Positions 28,355 through 38,700 of a stretch of 38,700 nucleotides of DNA are shown one piece after another. Under the pieces are notes generated by a model that made no database searches, had not been told where the DNA came from, and saw only the letters and a list, made by a program, of their open reading frames with translations. Origin of the DNA: Balamuthia mandrillaris (Eukaryota). The DNA lies in NCBI GenBank assembly GCA_031835245.2, contig JAVKOQ020000117.1, positions 124,001 to 162,700 of the forward strand, in the 5' to 3' direction. Numbering within the stretch: position 1 is the first letter of the stretch; each line of letters starts with the position of its first letter. The translations under genes and the position numbers were made by a program.

Positions 28355-28783
28355 TTAATCATCACAATCATCACTTTCTTCTTTATTCTTCTTTTTCATT
28401 TTTCTCTTTTGTTGTGATGCTAAATAAGCATGCTTGGATATAGCTGACTTGATAATAGAGGATTGGGAAGAAGAAGGAAGAGAAGATGATTTAAATTGTT
28501 GTTGAAAGGCCAATCTACATTGAATAATGTGGTCCTCTAACAGATGTACTGTTAAAGCACTAAAACGTTGCATAATGCTTTCTTTTTCATTGTCCCAAAA
28601 ATGAGTAGAAAAAGCAAAATATCGATGCTTTTGTGCTAAACAAGCAAAGGCCATACACTCAGTAGAGGGATGCAAATCAATGATGCTGTCTTCATCTTTT
28701 GTGTAAAGACAAAGAAACAACTTGTAAATGAGGACAGGTTTGGTGGGAACAGTAACTGCCGTTTTAGGACCAAGGGTGAGTAC
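28355..28783 (-). pseudogene. 5'-truncated coding fragment resembling the C-terminal part of an N4/N6 (beta-class) DNA methyltransferase
   Basis: Frame is open from 28783 with no ATG before the motif. PTKPVLIYKLFLCLYTKDEDSIIDLHPSTECMAFACLAQKHRYFAF parallels the family pattern P.QKP..L...LI...T..GD.VLDPF.GSG....A.....R.FIG, with the FxGxG loop degenerate. Recognised by eye only. Confidence 0.5.
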
Positions 28784-28858
28784 TCAGAACCTACAGCATT
28801 CAACTCCCCTAGTTAGGGTTAGGGGCGGGTACTCAGAACCTACAGCATTCAACTCCCC
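28780..28858. repeat. Perfect 30-bp direct repeat flanking a 19-bp spacer that contains TTAGGGTTAGGG
   Basis: GTACTCAGAACCTACAGCATTCAACTCCCC at 28780-28809 and 28829-28858; spacer TAGTTAGGGTTAGGGGCGG. Confidence 0.95.
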
Positions 28859-28962
28859 ATGGTCCATTCTATAAAACTCTAAGTCTATAAGTCCAACGGA
28901 TAAAGTGGGGCAAAGTAGCAATTTTTTCAATTTTCTCATAGGAATATATATATATATATAAT

Positions 28963-30466
28963 CTAACTGGATATAATCATAATATCATCATCATCATCAT
29001 CATCATCATTCTCCTTTGTTTCTTCCTCTTCATCCAAGATGGATATGACTGTAGTGGTAGTAGTAGAAGTAGGAGATGATGGGAGGGAAGCATGGTTGTC
29101 ATCCGGTGTGTCAAAGTCCTCATCATGGGCCACCAAGTATTTGTCTTTCAAAGCATCGAGATTGTTGAAGAATTCTGTGAGGAGATTGCGCCATTTGTCA
29201 TAGCAATCATTGTTGGTTCGGCGTTGGGTAGGCAAGTGTTTGGCAATCTCCAACCAAGACCATCCATCACACAAGCGCCAAGTGACAAGTCTACGGATTT
29301 CTGGTGTCTGCCAAGCAATCCGTTGTCGATGACCATTCTTCTGATATTTGAGTCGATTGGATAACATTTGTTGTCGCTGCTGAAGTGCTCTGCGAACTCG
29401 TTGTCGTGGTGGTGTTTTTTCTTTTGAGTTATGATTCCTTTCATCATCATCATCGTTATCATCGTTTTTTTTCAGAACATCATCATTAGGAAAAGTAGGT
29501 AAGAATGGCTGCTCTTGATGACGAGAGGTGAGGAATGCTTTGTGAATGGGTGATCCGTTGACCAACTTGGGAAGTACAGGAGCTACAAACTCATCCACCA
29601 GCTCATTCAAGCCACTGAAAAAACCTTGTAGAATGCCAGAGATATGTTGACGGCAAAGCTGACGATGAATATTGGGCCAACGAAGAGGAGATTTGTTTTT
29701 GGCCGCATAAGTTGCTGCAGCTTCAGCTAACACATCCTTGTCAAACTCATCTGAATGATTGTCTACCCAAGCAGTACAACATTCAAGCCACAAGGAGCGA
29801 TAAAATCGTATTTGTTGATCTTTGGTTGGTAAATCTGTTCGTTTCATGAAACTAAAGAAGCAGTGTAAAAGAAAGAAAAAGAAAGAAAAAGAGAAAAAGA
29901 GAAAAAGAGAAAAAGAAAGAATGAGAAAGAAAGAGAGAAAAAGAGACAAAAAAACAAAGTGTGAATAAATGATGCAATGTTAAAAGAAGAACAAATAGAC
30001 CAACACCAATCCATCAAAACAATTATTGTTTAGACCATGAATGTTGTTGCTGTTACAATAAACCTCTGCGTTCGAGCTGAGCGCTGAGTCTAAAGGTGCA
30101 TTTTTGAATGCAAGCAAGCAAGCAAACAAACAAACAAGCCATGACTGAATAGATTGATAGATAGTGGTAGATACCATCCAACACAAAACAAACCAGCAAA
30201 CAAACAAACCAACAAACAAACAACAACAAGCAAAGGCCAACAAAAAAAAAAACAAACAAACAAACAAACAAACAAACAAACCGTTGGCGAACAGCATGGA
30301 TAAAACTCTGATAGTTGGTATCTGCAGACCACTTGGATTGTTGTAAAGCCTCTGGGGATAGATTGTGAAATGCTTCTTTGGTAACTAGCTCTGGAGCAAT
30401 CACTGCAAGGGAGTGAGGATTAAAAAAAACCACAAAGAGAAAAAGTAAGCACAGGTGGTTTATAGA

Positions 30467-30505
<39 letters not shown>

Positions 30506-31344
30506 TAGCCAAAGAAAAAACAAAAGAAAAACAAAAAATCAGATGAATAACAAACCACAATGTCGAGGCCTCGGAGAATGATGATCAGCAGCAGCAGCAG
30601 AAGAAGAAGAAGAAAAAGAAGAAGAAGAAGAAGAAAAAGAAGATGAAGGATGAAGGGTGGTAACATTGCTAACCAAGCGATTGGCCACAATAGCACGTTT
30701 TAATGTATCCTTGACGTAGACTTGCTGAGATCTACCACGAGGTACCCAACCTGCAATAAGGGCAGTGGTATCCAGTACATTGTTCTGACTATGCCCTTCC
30801 TGCAGTCCCTCCAAGATCAAGGCAGTGCAAAGGAAGCCAGCACGTAAGGAGTGAAAGGAGAATAACCCTTCAGGATAACCAGCCCGAACAGCGCGGTCTT
30901 GCAGCTTGGCATTCAAAGTATCGCGTGACCATCCCCATAATGATGTTTGTTTTTGTTTGTCTGTCAAGCACCAGTTGTGAAACTCTCGCAAATCCAAACC
31001 ATGCTTGCACAGCAGATGCTTGTTTAGCCAGTAAATAAAATCTCCAAGACAAACTCCAGCGGTTGATGTTGTTGATGCAGCAGCGGTCGTGATGGTAGAG
31101 GTGGTAGTAGTGGTGCTAAGTGGCAATGAGGATAACGGGGATGGTGATGATGAAGATATTCCTCCTGGTGGTGGTGGTGGTGGTGGTGGTGGTGGTGTTA
31201 AATAACCTTCAAAAGTAACGACATGATTCCAATGATTTGGTATTCCTTTGGTGACTTGTTGGCGCAAAGAAAGGAAATAAAGAGGAGGAGAAAAGGCATC
31301 CTCTTGGTGGTGACAGCTGATGTTGCTGCTGCTGCTGCTGCGGC

Positions 31345-31396
<52 letters not shown>

Positions 31397-31740
31397 ATTG
31401 TTGTTGTTGGAAAAGGAGGATGAAAGTTTAGGTCGAAATGCCACAATATCACCCAAACGAATGTTTGCTGCTGTAATGGCTCTGGCACCAGTACAAACAC
31501 TGTGTAACCAACAACTGGCTTCACCAGCTTTGCTCACCAGTCCATCTGGAGTGGATGCGATGATATGCAAGACGTCATCCAGCAAACAAGCATCTTTGCA
31601 CAATTGTTTGCTAGAACAGGAGGGTTTGGCTCTTTTGCAATGCCGAATGGCCTGTTTGACTTGATCTTTGATGGCATCCATTTGGTTCTTTAGCAACAAC
31701 AAGTAGGCATGATCTGTTGCCATCATTGCTGTCGTGCGTC

Positions 31741-31792
<52 letters not shown>

Positions 31793-33180
31793 AGTGACAC
31801 CATCACCAAGAAGGGTTTTGGATAGAGGAGAAGCATTCCTGCTGGTTGTGGTGATAATAGAAGTAGGTGATGATGCTGGGGATGAAGAGATGGAAGAAAC
31901 AGAGGAAAAGGAGGAGGAGGAGGAGGAGGAGGAGGCAGCAAGGGTATCAAGCTGTTGTTGGATACTTTCATCATGCAAACGATAAAGACTGGCAATCATG
32001 ACATCACGCACAGAGCTCAAGGCATACCCCACATCCAAAATCAACCATTGAACAAAGGCTCCTACGTTATGGCGTTGGAGATTCAAAGGAAGAGCTGGCA
32101 AACATTGATGATGTGCACAATGCGCTTCCCAGATGGCCAAAGTCCAAGCATGTTTATGTTGGGTCGAAGGGCTCCATCGACTCGTCACTGCTGTCAACTC
32201 TGTCCAGCGCTCTTCTGACAAATGGTTCATCAATGTGATAGCACGAGAAAGACGTCTGCCGGCACCATCACCACCGTTACGACTACTGCTGCCATGTGTG
32301 GTATCATCATTATTATCATTTGCTGTTCTAGCTCCAATATGTTGGTTATCTCTTTTCTTCTTTTCTTGTTTTTCTTCTTTGTGTTTTTCTTTATCTTCTT
32401 CTTCTTCTTCTTCTTCTTCTTTGTCATCGGTCAATAACAACAAATCTATCAACGTTGGTGTGGCTGTTGTTTTGCTTGTTGCATCTATATCTGTTTCTGC
32501 TCCTCCTCCTCCTCTTCTGTCTAATGAGGATGATGATAATGACAATAAATTACAATTGCTACCGCTATCCATAACATCTTCATTGTTCTCAAAGACAAAG
32601 GACTCTGAATTTGTTGAAGAAGAAGAAGAAGAAGAAGAAGAAGATAAAGAAGAAGAAAAAGAAGAAGCAAATGAAGAAGAAGAACCAGAAGAAGAAATCA
32701 TCCTTTTTGGTTGTTGTTGTCGTGGTTGTGATTGGGTTGTTGATGCTGTGGTGGTAATGGTGGCGGTGGTGGTGGCGGTGGTGGTGGCGGTGGTAGATGA
32801 AAAGGGTGATGCAGAAAAAGGAGGTGAACAGAGTTCTGCAGGGTTATCAACATTAGCAATAACTGGAGCAGAATCAAGGGTGGTAGCTGATGGTGGTGTT
32901 TTTAACCAATAATGATCCAAAAACTGCTTGCGAATGAAAGAGCGAGAGTCCAGAGCCTGATAGGGAGGCAAGTGATGATAGAGAGATGTTGTGGATAAGG
33001 ATGATGATGATGATGATATTGAGACAATCGTTATTTCATCATCCTCTTCTTTTGCTGCTGTTGCTACTATTGTTTTTGCTACTGCTACTTCTTTGTTGTT
33101 GTTGTTGTTGTTGTTGTTGTTATTGTTGTTGTTTATTGGTAGAGGTTGGTCAAAGGCAGCAGGAATAGATAGATTATCTT
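28963..33180 (-). CDS. Tyrosine recombinase fused to a C-terminal Myb/SANT domain (about 1200 aa from the exons traced; 5' end unresolved)
   Basis: In-phase GT-AG exons 33180-30556, 30402-30282, 30089-30064, 29834-28963. Core-binding-like region (SPSTQHKHAWTLAIWEAHC..VGAFVQWL). Catalytic set TGAR (R, 31483), VTKG (K, 31249), HSLR (30853-30842), AGW (30748), QVY (Y, 30718). Myb: AWQTPEIRRLV..WSWLEIAKHLPTQRRTNNDCYDKWRNLL. Confidence 0.88.
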
Positions 33181-33191
33181 CTGTTTGTTAA

Positions 33192-33227
<36 letters not shown>

Positions 33228-33649
33228 ATAGTAGACACAAACACAAACAACAAATTGTGAAACAAAAGAAACGAGAAGTTAGTAATTGAGGATGAATAAA
33301 TAAAGAGATGATAAAACTAAATGAGAACTATGTGGTTACTCGTTTTGTTTTTCCTTTTCTTTCTCTTTTTTTTCCTTTTTCATTTTTATAATTGCCTTTT
33401 CATCATACTCAGTTGTCTTTTTTTGTTGCCTATCTATTATTTACAACAACAATCACTACTATTACTCACTTACTCTCACTCAGCACTCTTAACCATTATT
33501 ACCATCACCACCATTATTACTTTACTATTCATCTATCTATCCATTGTTTGTTTAACCAATATTATTACCATCAACCAACCAACCAACCAACCAACCAACC
33601 AACTCAAGCTATCACTCAACTAACCAACAAATATAAAAAGAGAAAGAGA

Positions 33650-33693
33650 TCACCTGCCTGTGTTACGGCGTTGTGAACGAGTTGTGGCTCCTT

Positions 33694-33729
<36 letters not shown>

Positions 33730-34122
33730 TAGATGACGCAGCCACAGCAGCAGCAGCACTTTGCAAAGATGATTTGGCTGCAGCAGTAGCAATAGCTTTT
33801 TGGGCAGCAGCTGCAGCCTTGCGCGTAGATTTGTTGCTAAGGCTCTTGGATGCACTTGTGTTTTCCTCTCCTTTCTGTTTTTCTGCTTCTTTTTCTCCAG
33901 CTTTTGCTTCTTCTTCTTCTTCTACTTCTTCTTCTGCTTTCTCCTCTTCTTCTTTTTCTTCTTCTTCTTCCTTGTCTCTGCTAGCATCTTTGCTTCTCTG
34001 TTCCTCTTCTTTTTCTTTTTCTTTTTCTTTTTCTTTTTCTTCTTCTTCTTCTTCTTCTTCTTCTTCTTCTGCTGTTGCTGCTGCTTGTTTAGCTGGGTCA
34101 CTAGCAGTTTGCTTTGATACTA

Positions 34123-34181
<59 letters not shown>

Positions 34182-34185
34182 TAAG

Positions 34186-34222
<37 letters not shown>

Positions 34223-36757
34223 CCACAATCAGTAAGTAATGGAATGAGAAATCACAAAGGCATAACACTGCAAACAAACACCAAAAAGATAGCGCTCCGA
34301 TGGAGCGCTAAACAATCAACACCAAAAGACAATCAAAAAACAATGAATAATAAAAACACAAAACTGGAGTTAAAAAGCTGCCGCTCCGACGGAGCGCTAC
34401 TGCATAAGGATAGAATTGCAACCAAAACAGCCAACAAAAAGAAAAAAACACAAAGAGGAAAAGGACAAACAATCCAACAAACAAACTCCAACCAACAGAC
34501 AAAATGAAATATAATACATACATCCCAACACGTCGATCAGAATGGAATCATCACTCTCTTCATCCACTGCAACTGCTGATGGAGCTGTCTTGGGCATATT
34601 TGTCTTGCTTTTGCTATTTCCACCACCACCACCACGTGGTGTATCTGTATGCATGCATGCATGCATGCATGCAAGTGAGATGCGATGCATTTGTGTGTTG
34701 TTATTGTGCAAAGAAAGGACGGATATAAGCAAGTAATAACAAAAAGAAAAAAAGAAAAAAAAAAAACGAGTAGGAGTAGTGGATGTTGTGGTTGTTGTAA
34801 CCACCAAACATGAGCACCTCTTACCTGTTGCAGGAGTGATATCAACACTCATGAGACTGGCAATCTCATCGTCATCATCATCATCAGCATCAGCATCAGC
34901 ATCATCATTCTCTGAGGAGCTGCTATTGCTACTGCTGCTGCTGCTGATACTAGGAGCAGTAGACTTGGTAGAAGCTGTAGGCTTCTTTTTCTTCTTGGAT
35001 TTTTCTTCTTCCTGCTCTGACTCCTCTGACTTATCTGCCGCCTCTGACTCCTCCGACTCGGTGGCGGTCTTCTTTTTCTTCTTTTTCTGCTGTTGCTTCT
35101 GCTTCTGCTTCTGCTTCTGTTTTTGCTTCTGCTTCTGCTTTTGCTTCTGCTTTTGCTTCTTTTTCTTTTCTTTCAGCAGCAGATCATCATCTGCTTTCCG
35201 TGGCTTCTTGCTTGTTGCAGGAGAAGAAGAGGCAGCAGAGGATGACATAGCTCTTGGGCGCTTTGTTGAGCTTGGTTTTTGCTGCTTTCTTTTTGCTGCT
35301 ATTGCTGCTGTTGCTGCTGCTGCTATGTCCATTTTGTCTACAAACTCACCAACTGATGTAGCATTTGCATCATCATCACCACCACCACCACCACCACCAC
35401 CACCCAGACGACTGCCATCATCAAGACTAAACTCTGCATCATTCAAACTACTACTCTGGTGGTCCACAGCAGCAAAAGAGCGAAGGTCAGGCCCAAAAAA
35501 CTCTGTCAAGTCAATGCAGGGGCTGGCATCAACAGAGATATCTTGCTGCAGCTCACTGCTCTTCTGAGCCAGCTTGTCCATGGCTTTTTGGTGCCTAACC
35601 GAATGGCGTTTGGCGCGATGCTTCTCCCTCTTCATTTCTGTAGTGCCGACTTTGGTAGAGGCTGTATGGATGGGCTGCCACGTTTTGTCTTCCAATTGAT
35701 CCACATATTGTAAATCCCTGGAGAGTAACAGAAAGAGAAAAAGAGAGAGAGAGAAAGAGAGAAAGAGAGAGAGAGAGAGAAATAAAGAGGAAAAGAGAAA
35801 AAGAAAAGTGAAAAAATGGTGAGTTGTTGCTATGAAACAAACAAACAAACAAACAAACAAATAAAAAAACGACTTACCAATCAGCTGCGAGTGGTGATAT
35901 AGTATCCAGCTCAGGCAAATCTTTGACATGCACAATAGCAGCTGCATCGGATAACTGGCCTGCTGGCATGTTAGCTGTAGCAGAGCTGCTAGCTGTACTC
36001 TTGTTCTTGCTTTTGGTGCTGCTGCTGCTGCTTTTGCTTCGTCTTCGCTCAGGTTTTTTGGATTTTTCCACTGCGATGTGCGGCCACACTCGCTCCAGCT
36101 GAGAACGAACCGGATGATGAATGCGTGTCTTCCAGACCTTTCTGTCCAAAGGATCCAACTCCAGCAGAGTATTTTGTTGTTGCGCTTCCTTCACCAAGCA
36201 GCGACGAACAGCAAGCACCAACCGCCTAACATCCTCCAAGGGTCCAGAAAGGTTGATGCTGGTAGAAATGCGCATGCCTTTCAAGGATTTCAGACTGGCA
36301 AAGTTCAACGCGTTCTCTGCCAAGGCTTCTTGCACCGTAAAGGGAGGACAATAATGGGTCAGCTTTATACGGTAGAGGAACAACTTTTCCTTGGCGGAAT
36401 GCTGCTTATCTACTATCGCTTCCTTTTGGGCCGCTTGCTCTAATTGCTGGTGATCCAGTGGGGGATGTAAGAAGGCCTCTGGATCTTCCTCCATCATCGC
36501 TTCTTCTTCTTCTTCTTCTTCTTCTTCTTCTTCTTCTTCTTCTTCTTCTTGTTGCTCTTCGTCTTCATCTTCCTCTTCCTCTTCTTCTGACATCCTCTCT
36601 TGTTGTCCTTTCTTTTGATGACGGCTTGTTGTTGCCTTTGGGAGAGTAGCTGACATAAGGGCATCTGCCAAAGACGACTCATGTAACCATTCTTGGCTCA
36701 ATGGTGGCAAGCGAGTATTTTCCTCGTGTGTTGGGCTATCACTATGAGTAAGCGAGA

Positions 36758-36801
<44 letters not shown>

Positions 36802-38700
36802 GTGGACAAGCAAAGGGAATTTAAAGCGGAAAGGATAACAAGTCTCACTCGCAGCAAGCAAGTAAGGAAAGGAGGGAAGTAGGCACAACATACTGGATAG
36901 TTTTAGCATGTAATATCATAAATAGTTTCTGCAGGCCTAGAGGGAGTTGTCGATATACTAACAACAGTTCTTCACGGGTGAAGGGACCCTGAAAAACACG
37001 TCCTTTTCGCTTGCGCCGTTCATCAGTGGAGGGCATTTCCTTGAGAATGCTATACACTGCAGCATTAATGAGATTACGGATCCAAATCCCGGTGGGTGTC
37101 TCATAAAATCTGGACTGAGAGGGAGTAGCATCCAACAGTTGTTGTGGTGGCAGTGGTGAAGATTGGGGTGGATCCATAGGCAAGACCTCGTTGCCACGAT
37201 CAAGACCAAGCGCAGCTTGATGCAGCACGTCCCAATGACCCTTGCGAATGGATTGCGCTAGCCACTTCCACCACGGATTTTGCAGACCGTTGATGATCCA
37301 TGGTCCTTCAACGATGCTACCATGGCAGCGTAGGCCATTGGCCACGATATCACCCAATTCCTGGATGATTCCTTCATTTTGGGCCTGTAGCCATCCATAT
37401 GTACATTAAGGGATAACCAACAAAAAAAAAAAAATGAAAGTTAGCACTTTCCTTCCACCAGGCGCACATAACAATCTCCCAACCCACCCTAATAACCAAC
37501 TAAACAAACAAACAAACAGAAAAAAAAACAAACAGATGATGATGGACCTTGCGTCTACAAAACCTCAGAAAGATTTTGCTTTGCTCTGTGTTAACTTCTG
37601 AAGGAGGGCTGACCACCATGGGAATGTAATAATAAAACACCAACTGCTTCTGGATGGCTGGAGCCAAGGGGTGCAGCAGACGAAAGTCAGTTTTCGAAAT
37701 GAGGCCCCGGTTCTCTGCTGCCAGTTGGGAAATAACATCAATGGACATATGCTCCACTAGGGACAGATCTTGTCGAAAAGCATTGAGCGTAAAGGATTTC
37801 GCATGGGCCGCTGGCAAATCCTGTTTTGTGAGCACAAAATACGGTAGCATCTCCCGTGGAGGTAAGCTTTTCTTTGATTTGGCATCATCGAAAATATGTT
37901 CCGCAGCAGCAAGCGCCACTTTCAAGACCCTGTTGTTTTGAATCTGATTCATTGCCCTGACACAACATAACACACACATAGAAGTAAGTAGGTTGGTAGT
38001 AGGTAAGTAGGTAGGTAGGTAGGTCAGAAAACAAACAAACAAACAAACAAACAAACAAACAAACAAACAAACAAACAAACAAACAAACAAACAAACAAAC
38101 AAACACACACACACACACAAACAAACAAACAAACAAACAAACAAACAAACAAACAAACAAACAAACAACAAGAAGCACATACTCAGTCTTGGAGAGTTGA
38201 ACTGCATTGGAGAGCTTCAACAAAGTGTCAGCAAATGACCATTCTCGTGGTTTTACTTTGGTGTTGGGGTCTTCTACCATCGACACAATCTGATGCACCA
38301 GTAGTGCAAGAAGATGAATTATGTTGTAATAGCGACCGTAGATCGGCATGAGTGGTGATAACCACACACCATTGTTGCCTGCGAGCTGATAATGCTGTAT
38401 GACATCGCTTGCTGAACGATACACCGCGTTAAGATCATTGTCCGATATCTTGGCTGCCACCCTCTGCTGCTGAGGAGAAGAGGCAGCTGATAAGGAAGAA
38501 GAGACGGAGGGAGGGCTAGAAGGCGAGGTGGTGGTTGCTACAATAGCTGTGGTTCTCAGCGGAGTAGAAGGAGGAGTGAAGAGATTGCTGCTGGCCTCAC
38601 CACCCATCACACCAGCAGCACCAGATGAAGATGATGACGATGAGGAAAATGGTGAATGACCACTACTATTGCTTCTACCAGAAGGCGTGGGGCTCTCTTG
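33650..38700 (-). CDS. Large multi-exon hypothetical protein (>1200 aa, 5' end outside window), co-oriented and directly upstream of the recombinase
   Basis: Exons >38700-38183, 37956-37548, 37384-36894, 36741-35878, 35717-34825, 34644-34522 and 34119-33650 all join in phase at GT-AG junctions. No domain recognised. Confidence 0.75.
34290..34399. repeat. Two copies of a GC-rich palindrome (CGCTCC-GAY-GGAGCG) in an AT-rich intron
   Basis: TAGCGCTCC-GAT-GGAGCGCTA at 34290-34310 and CGCTCC-GAC-GGAGCG(CTA) at 34382-34399. Confidence 0.85.
37990..38170. repeat. (TAGG)n, (AAAC)n and (CA)n intronic microsatellites
   Basis: Visible arrays within intron 38182-37957. Confidence 0.9.

Follow-up and report, generated by a model that had tools for sequence, protein, structure and literature searches.

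A tyrosine-recombinase gene with a telobox-like Myb domain beside a TTAGGG dimer that bounds a multi-copy element of Balamuthia mandrillaris

Ties of transposons to telomeres have been described for reverse-transcriptase elements and for a small number of DDE elements. In Oxytricha TBE1 and the Athena/Coprina Penelope-like elements, which use DDE transposases or reverse transcriptases, the terminus itself includes host telomere repeats. To our knowledge, none of these encodes a telobox reader. Crypton DNA transposons, for their part, reportedly go back to a description by Goodwin et al. in 2003. In the parts of the survey by Kojima & Jurka (2011, PMC3212892) drawn on here, CryptonF combines a tyrosine recombinase with a C-terminal GCR1_C DNA-binding domain and DUF3504 occurs in CryptonA and its derivatives, while in Cryptons at large any DNA-binding domain that is recognised is GCR1_C, and the termini are marked by 4–6-bp direct repeats, without terminal inverted repeats or long terminal repeats. 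Endogenous nimaviruses of crustaceans, in the portion of PMC10871703 consulted, possess telomere-repeat-specific tyrosine recombinases with C2H2 and SAM-like domains and no Myb, and have giant genomes lying within (TAACC)n tracts. The present analysis concerns a stretch of 38,700 nucleotides from the amoebozoan Balamuthia mandrillaris (assembly GCA_031835245.2, contig JAVKOQ020000117.1, positions 124,001 to 162,700), hereafter the window, to which all coordinates refer. Its minus strand carries a gene in which a tyrosine recombinase, as judged from sequence, is joined to a Myb domain, and beyond the stop codon of this gene lies a dimer of the telomere repeat TTAGGG that is the 3′ boundary of a multi-copy element.

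The element shares the presence of host telomere repeats in its terminus with TBE1 and the Athena/Coprina elements, but uses a tyrosine recombinase. Like Cryptons, it is multi-copy and has this recombinase as its sole enzyme, with no reverse transcriptase, and, as in CryptonF, a DNA-binding domain follows the recombinase at the C-terminus. Unlike that of CryptonF, the domain is a Myb module apparently of the telobox type, without a match to DUF3504 or GCR1_C; in addition, one end of the element is a telomere-repeat dimer rather than a 4–6-bp direct repeat, and the host belongs to the Amoebozoa, unlike those of the Cryptons of PMC3212892, where a text search for ‘Myb’ and ‘amoeb’ gave no occurrence. 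With the nimaviruses, going by the same portion of PMC10871703, it has in common that a eukaryotic mobile element with a tyrosine recombinase is physically tied to the host telomere motif, whereas it is small, has two repeats at one end and is flanked by non-telomeric sequence. The top matches inspected in full-text literature searches included neither a recombinase–telobox fusion nor a recombinase element ending in telomere repeats, and in the matching excerpts plant LSH10 was the only hit for telobox together with tyrosine recombinase.

The initial annotation, made from the sequence alone, had placed a telobox-like recognition helix and a telomeric dimer about 350 bp apart. Both are present as quoted: the dimer lies 355 bp from helix 3 (position 29179) and 139 bp past the stop codon, and it is the sole match in the 38.7-kb window even when two mismatches are allowed. 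By arithmetic, about 0.005 exact occurrences of a 12-mer are expected on both strands of such a stretch, and when the whole window was shuffled, a match with at most one mismatch arose in 10 of 100 shuffles; the hexamer TTAGGG/CCCTAA is not enriched (5 in the window versus a mean of 18.7 per hexamer). The repeat is that of the host, since Balamuthia telomeres are described, in the pertinent part of a preprint, as canonical TTAGGG with about 90 units per end (bioRxiv 10.1101/2025.02.25.640156). The joint occurrence of helix and dimer is not a chance observation. The element end comprises the following features.

28813–28824, plus strand: the dimer TTAGGGTTAGGG, two host telomere repeats, the outermost element sequence at the 3′ end; in gene sense, ...GAGTACCCGCCCCTAACCCTAA-C-end
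28812–28965, minus strand: 3′ non-coding terminal segment from stop codon to boundary, containing the 30-bp unit R2 (28829–28858)
28963–28965, minus strand: stop codon of the recombinase–Myb gene

That the dimer bounds a repeated element is apparent from sequencing data. Contigs of three runs (X1, X3 and X7) and raw reads of a fourth were aligned on positions 28420–28945 at 88% likeness, and the depth of the raw reads, summed over both directions, changes along the segment as follows.

28420–28617: 70–122
28618–28779: 165–303
28780–28797: 3
28798–28815: 67
28816–28869: 524–613

A repeat boundary at 28812–28818 was found in all four runs. Before position 28812, 198 raw reads break, and the agreement among their unlike flanks is only 0.47, so that many different flanks must lie beyond the boundary; further breaks occur before 28816 (38 reads), 28817 (63) and 28818 (37), giving 336 reads in all. 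Contigs break at the same boundary (n = 8 for X1, n = 2 for X7 and n = 2, at 28815, for X3), and a 118-nt contig of X3 with a depth of 824 matches 28812–28928 exactly from its second base. The repeat family thus starts at (G)TTAGGGTTAGGGGCGGGTAC and extends toward the gene, the boundary itself being (G)TTAGGGTTAGGGG, and the dimer is always joined to one and the same element sequence, GCGGGTAC.

Other gene models lead to the same end. The peptide LEFYRMDH..., encoded from 28882 downward, follows the IMIIS end of the Myb open reading frame (ORF) in five other gene models, and the terminal repeat therefore belongs to the recombinase element. Three of the five, P0014, P0019 and P0041, read through unspliced, and all three encode (S/P/H)LTLT, which corresponds to CTAACCCTAAC and is obtained by translating CCCTAACCCTAAC or a close variant of it; past LTLT they part ways (IVLKDV, KYI, LMF), and none continues like the window. 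The remaining two of the five, P0010 and P0043, exit the terminal stretch earlier, at predicted splice sites. The idea that the dimer is a window-specific 49-bp insertion lacking in P0014 and P0019 was ruled out, as EYPPLTLT translates GAGTACCCGCCCCTAACCCTAAC. The dimer is, accordingly, the 3′ boundary of a multi-copy element, with this end placed at 28812/13. Of the options offered by the initial annotation, that the protein might find its own end has thus gained ground, and the check it proposed, for TTAGGG at the ends of other copies, turned out positive for the 3′ end, in four of four runs as well as in the three read-through models. No RNA gene was found at the terminus with Rfam or ARAGORN.

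The attribution of the Myb domain to the recombinase, which the initial annotation had taken for granted, proved correct. An 810-codon recombinase ORF (30539–32971) and the Myb ORF (28963–29949) join via three GT..AG introns into one open frame of 1144 codons in four exons, 32971–28966 on the minus strand. P0005, a spliced model of 489 aa from B. mandrillaris, links the 3′ part of the recombinase ORF with the Myb ORF by the same junctions as are present in the window; it is covered entirely by the joined product, with 482 of 488 aligned residues identical. Recombinase and Myb domain are assigned to one gene because the joined frame is open and matches P0005. The parts of the gene, all on the minus strand, are listed below.

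30556–32971, minus strand: exon A, encoding the tyrosine recombinase, which is interrupted by long low-complexity inserts; position of the true start codon provisional
30403–30555, minus strand: intron 1, 153 nt, GT..AG
30282–30402, minus strand: exon B, encoding VIAPELVTKEAFHNL...AVRQR
30090–30281, minus strand: intron 2, 192 nt, GT..AG
30064–30089, minus strand: exon C, 26 nt, with junctions as in P0005
29835–30063, minus strand: intron 3, 229 nt, GT..AG, with junctions matching P0005
28966–29834, minus strand: exon D, with a conserved helical linker (RxHI..LL...L.ELV.EF..P), the Myb module and an acidic tail

Judging from its residues, the product is a tyrosine recombinase with the full R-K-H-x-x-R-W-Y set, which appears in the expected form R497 (31481–31483), K575 (31247–31249), H707 and R710 (30842–30853), W742 (30746–30748) and Y752 (30716–30718), in that order. 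R497, K575, H707 and R710 occupy invariant columns of the family alignment A4, which has 36 such columns, including TGAR, KG and FHSxRxGF. Profile searches were less informative: Pfam Phage_integrase (PF00589) gave no match for the window ORF, P0003, P0004, P0026, P0007 or P0033, the nearest integrase-type match being Phage_int_SAM_1 in P0033 (E 0.054), and when the profile of the full-length family was run against the PDB, it retrieved Myb chains only and no recombinase. The two-domain integrase fold was tested on P0033, an environmental relative of 602 aa, and not on the window protein. The predicted structure of P0033 matches Phage_integrase clusters with TM scores of 0.66–0.68 over 290–303 residues, and a Foldseek search with its AlphaFold2 (AF2) model gave 24 matches at E ≤ 0.001, all of them Cre, below which followed XerD, XerH, XerA, an integron integrase and Flp; the Foldseek matches call for caution because the mean predicted local distance difference test score (pLDDT) of this AF2 model is only 64.6. 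No reverse transcriptase, RNase H or methyltransferase was detected when 28 long window ORFs were scanned against Pfam, and GCR1_C and DUF3504 were absent from the scans of the window ORF and five relatives. Lacking reverse transcriptase and RNase H, the element is by its architecture Crypton-like rather than DIRS-like. As a side observation, exon A contains long poly-N, poly-S, poly-A, poly-P and poly-T inserts that are absent in the paralog P0003, and its catalytic motifs are intact.

The region from 29179 to 29328 (minus strand) translates to RQRIAWQTPEIRRLVTWRLCDGWSWLEIAKHLPTQRRTNNDCYDKWRNLL and forms the larger part of the DNA-binding module.

29131–29334, minus strand: whole predicted DNA-binding module, consisting of a basic arm, a three-helix Myb and a predicted fourth helix
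29311–29334, minus strand: basic arm GHRQRIAW, the R-x-R-x-x-W of alignment A1
29179–29223, minus strand: recognition helix 3, translated as RRTNNDCYDKWRNLL
29131–29172, minus strand: fourth helix FFNNLDALKDKYLV, predicted in the AF2 model

Modelled with AF2 (pLDDT 86.4), the window domain displays the three-helix Myb fold, with helices at residues 15–27, 32–38 and 46–59, plus a fourth. A search run exhaustively over 1.84 billion representatives yielded 22 proteins. The window-type copies of Balamuthia in which the helix is complete number 13, a figure that includes the window and further copies retrieved by later searches; the nine non-window-type proteins come from two further Balamuthia subfamilies, from JGI metagenomes (four proteins), from Logan (one) and from ENA (one). 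The R-x-R-x-x-W arm ahead of helix 1 is invariant in all members (R8, R10 and W13 of alignment A1), and the family consensus of helix 3 is RTNVDCKDKWRN. In the non-window-type proteins, helix 3 reads as follows.

P0003, P0004, P0018 and P0033: RTNVDCKDKWRN
P0026: RTNVDCKDRWRN
P0021: RSNVDCKDRFRN
P0023: RTGVDVKDRFRN
P0024: RTNMDCKDKWRN
P0025: RTNVDLKDKWRN, the exact telobox VDLKDKWRNL

In the telobox Myb proteins (TRF1/TRF2 and plant TRP/TBP/RTBP/TRB), as covered by the relevant parts of PMC2377444, bases are contacted by K421, D422 and R425 of helix 3 and R380 of the arm in hTRF1, and by K620, D621, K624 and R577 in NgTRF1 (Table 3 of that paper), where alanine at each tested contact position nearly abolished binding. 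Lys, Asp and Arg are kept at the positions of K421, D422 and R425 in nine of the nine non-window-type proteins (P0003, P0004, P0018, P0021, P0023, P0024, P0025, P0026 and P0033) and likewise in L001, a metagenome locus. The arm Arg, which as in TRF1 R380 stands three residues ahead of the Trp and is invariant in the family, is also kept, so that all four contact positions are retained in the nine proteins. Their helix 3, together with that of L001, follows the pattern R(T/S)-x-(V/M)-D-(C/L/V)-K-D-(K/R)-(W/F)-R-N. Compared with the telobox proteins of that same account (PMC2377444), the family is alike in having a single Myb repeat with a basic N-terminal arm and in a helix 3, RTNVDCKDKWRN versus VDLKDKWR, that retains the Asp and Arg contacts, and the predicted fourth helix of the window domain recalls the plant Myb extension. 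It differs in that its Myb is fused to a recombinase and not to TRFH or H1 domains, and in that Cys replaces Leu in the helix, the window subfamily having in addition Tyr for the base-contacting Lys and Asn for Val. The paralogs and relatives exceed the Pfam PF00249 cut-off, at 25.0–39.4 bits; among single domains, TRF1 scores highest for P0025 (25.4 bits) but not for P0003. After the family members themselves, the module profile retrieves telobox proteins, among them a Thlaspi TRB-like protein and a Massospora protein named TRF2, from candidates preselected by shared five-residue words, which favours helix-3 look-alikes. We take these sequences to mean that the DNA-reading parts of the domain are probably of telobox descent, two of the reading positions having changed in the window subfamily.

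It is tempting to connect the domain with the end of the element. In our preferred interpretation, a single copy of a Crypton-like tyrosine-recombinase element, itself multi-copy, is present in the window, and its Myb of telobox ancestry may bind the terminal TTAGGG and so bring the recombinase to its own end; we would give this a probability of roughly 0.45. The Myb module would dock on the terminal telomere-like site, by analogy with the accessory or arm-type DNA-binding domains of other recombinases and transposases, and docking would position the catalytic domains for synapsis and strand exchange nearby. Like Cryptons, the element might move as a DNA circle. The Tyr-for-Lys subfamily would still read the terminal site, perhaps with an altered preference; confidence in docking is nevertheless limited, because the Lys-to-Tyr change could alter or abolish the reading of TTAGGG. 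A broader evolutionary scenario, which we regard as doubtful, is that a recombinase-transposon lineage captured a shelterin-type telobox domain, ends in the host telomere repeat and reads TTAGGG as an end signal; such mimicry could allow docking at telomeric or interstitial repeats, or the recruitment of host telomere proteins.

Several observations weigh against docking at the terminal dimer, the first of them within the window subfamily itself. The helix of the window copy, NDCYDKWRN, departs from VDLKDKWR(N/T) by Asn for Val, Cys for Leu and Tyr for Lys. It retains Asp217 (29197–29199) and Arg220 (29188–29190), but Tyr216 (29200–29202) takes the place of hTRF1 K421, which leaves three of the four TRF1-type base-contact positions. 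This is no peculiarity of a single copy: NNDCYDKW, with Asn for Val and Tyr for Lys, is read in 13 of 13 window-type copies, and in four of the 13 His or Cys stands at the R425 position. The Tyr sits at the position equivalent to the Lys whose exchange for Ala in NgTRF1 nearly abolished binding, according to the mutational part of PMC2377444. Moreover, the window domain reaches 21.1 bits with Pfam Myb_DNA-binding (PF00249), under the cut-off of 24.4. Family profile A1 scores single repeats of c-Myb at 30–37 bits, GT-1 at 36, TRF1 at 31, NgTRF1 at 28.8 and TRF2 at 23, and in a Foldseek search with the model of the window domain, TRF2 and TRF1 ranked first, but at E 0.23–0.42, interleaved with c-Myb and with no match at E ≤ 0.001. 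Whole-domain comparison thus does not separate the TRF type from the c-Myb type, the scores of the family being no nearer to TRF than to c-Myb. For the telobox-like helix proposed in the initial annotation this means that the family helix 3 and the TRF-like arm bear the assignment out, while the window's own domain, with Tyr for the base-contacting Lys, does not; of the scoring that it suggested, the Pfam Myb model leaves the window below its threshold, and whole-domain comparison does not set the family nearer to TRF than to c-Myb.

The remaining points against docking concern the ends. No second dimer was found in the window, whether on the opposite side of the gene or elsewhere, even with two mismatches allowed, and the 5′ end of the element was not found: the terminal 17-mer, with three mismatches allowed, was unmatched elsewhere in the window, and a blastn-short search of the terminal 365 bp against the window returned nothing. 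A CCCTAA at 37487 was considered as the 5′ end and rejected, as it sits in an apparent intron of another gene. In a metagenome scan yielding 16 loci, L001 (3567 bp) was the sole family member and the sole non-Balamuthia locus with DNA. It contains the 3′ part of a recombinase–Myb gene (helix 3 ERSNVDCKDRWRN) and, about 1.4 kb on and on the same strand, the start of another, and thus two copies head to tail. Its nearest telomere-like word, TTAGGGTTAGAGTTGGGGG, at about position 2114 within the 1.4-kb spacer, is an imperfect match some 775 bp beyond the stop codon and has the opposite orientation to the window dimer. By a rough estimate, the chance of a 10-base telomere-like word in 3.6 kb is a few per cent, and the word lends weak support to a link between the family and the telomere repeat.

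Alternatively, Myb domain and dimer may have no functional link. Having drifted from a telobox ancestor, the Myb would then serve as a tail that binds DNA or chromatin in general, recognition of the ends would fall to the recombinase's core-binding domains, and the dimer would have some other role, for example as a site for a host telomere protein or as a regulatory element. This is consistent with the exchange of both Lys and Val throughout the window-type copies, with the sub-threshold Pfam score, and with the best PDB sequence matches of the window domain, namely B-Myb, c-Myb, GT-1 and CEF1, all at E > 0.1 and without a TRF chain at E ≤ 10. Furthermore, CryptonF uses a different DNA-binding domain, by the account in the above parts of PMC3212892, so that such tails would be interchangeable. 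Nevertheless, a telobox-derived reader and a matching repeat at the boundary of its own element would then be a coincidence, the window copy retains the Asp, the Arg and the basic arm, and the module is conserved across the Balamuthia subfamilies and the environmental relatives. We therefore judge this explanation to be unlikely, if a serious contender.

Another explanation, to which we would attach somewhat less credence still, is that the Myb picks the target instead of the element's own end. Integration would take place within short TTAGGG-like sites, interstitial or at telomeres, and the dimer would be a remnant of the crossover site. The number of repeats at the junction indeed varies, with breaks at 28812 and, six bases on, at 28816–28818. 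In three runs, the last bases of the unlike flanks ahead of G28812 are (C)TAG or AAG, which could be a degenerate third repeat, as target homing would have it, or a target preference. On the other hand, the flanks past the dimer are diverse and their consensus is non-telomeric, the read-through models P0014, P0019 and P0041 enter unrelated sequence, and the dimer is invariably attached to the same element sequence, as described above. From 29000 to 38700, there is no plus-strand TTAGGG and no dimer with up to two mismatches. The suggestion in the initial annotation that telomeric arrays are targeted has consequently found no backing, there being no sign of insertion in them.

Finally, it is very improbable that telomerase added the dimer on healing a broken or linear copy whose descendants inherited it as something other than a recognition site: although the dimer is short and at the extreme end, and an exact 30-bp subterminal duplicate beyond the window copy suggests irregular repair at the junction, the same end is found in many copies with different flanks in all four runs, a healed end would be a chromosome end and not an interstitial junction, and the telobox-type domain of the gene would be left unexplained.

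The sequence just outside the element end has peculiarities of its own.

28776–28811, no strand assigned: 36-bp piece outside the element end, containing R1 (28780–28809)
28618–28775, no strand assigned: a different repeat flanking the element, depth 165–303

R1 is an exact second copy of the subterminal R2, and the resulting 30-bp direct repeat, GTACTCAGAACCTACAGCATTCAACTCCCC, brackets the dimer. The outer junction (28776–28811) is almost absent from the raw-read run, at a depth of 0–3, so that strains may differ in the insertion or in how it is arranged locally; the junction may be strain-specific. Other copies of the flanking repeat continue differently beyond 28775, with 190 and 28 reads loose behind 28775 and 28774, respectively, and an agreement of 0.87 to 1; elsewhere the repeat continues with the shared consensus TTTTCCTCAAATTTGCTCTTTGAAGGTACT. 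A 121-aa ORF over this repeat (28355–28720, minus strand) had no Pfam match.

On the other side of the gene, an upstream acidic gene rich in Lys and Glu (33650–35950, minus strand) recurs beside a recombinase–Myb remnant in gene model P0017, and an exon at 36603–36740 (region 35877–36902, minus strand) is 74% identical to the tail of the paralog model P0018. P0017 thus suggests that the acidic gene (about 33650–34620) accompanies the recombinase gene in one further copy at least. Since P0017 pairs the two, the element may be longer than the recombinase gene; it may carry extra genes, or the genes at 33650–36902 may be frequent neighbours. The Balamuthia gene model P0004 runs in frame from its own Myb domain into the linker of a P0003-type copy, which suggests that copies of different subfamilies are nested or adjacent.

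Three loci of the metagenome scan, L003, L012 and L014, were rejected as family members: they have (CCCTAA)3–6 downstream of a telobox Myb, but are GC-rich algal genes unrelated to recombinases. In L012 (594–1913) and L014 (557–2398), from a GC-rich marine eukaryote, an N-terminal telobox Myb (RTNVDLKDKWRN) is joined to what reads as a cyclin-like region, with (CCCTAA)4–6 within the gene region, and L003 has a similar (CCCTAA)n tract in a low-complexity coding region. A scan of viral contigs found no relative.

For tyrosine recombinases, the known telomere case is that of the giant viral insertions in crustaceans, whereas here a small element pairs a telomere-type reader with a telomere-repeat terminus; the window thereby adds a link between the recombinase–telobox architecture and an element end. 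It also adds to the annotation of Balamuthia transposons, which, as stated in part of the preprint cited above (bioRxiv 10.1101/2025.02.25.640156), needs dedicated effort. In the broader evolutionary scenario considered doubtful above, a transposon–telomere interface would have been built from a recombinase rather than from a reverse transcriptase. Should binding of the end by the domain be borne out, this would reveal how the termini of a Crypton-like element are marked, a matter poorly understood so far, and the family would offer a natural Lys-versus-Tyr pair for the study of telobox specificity. Such binding would, moreover, point to a way in which parts could pass between telomere-binding domains and mobile elements.

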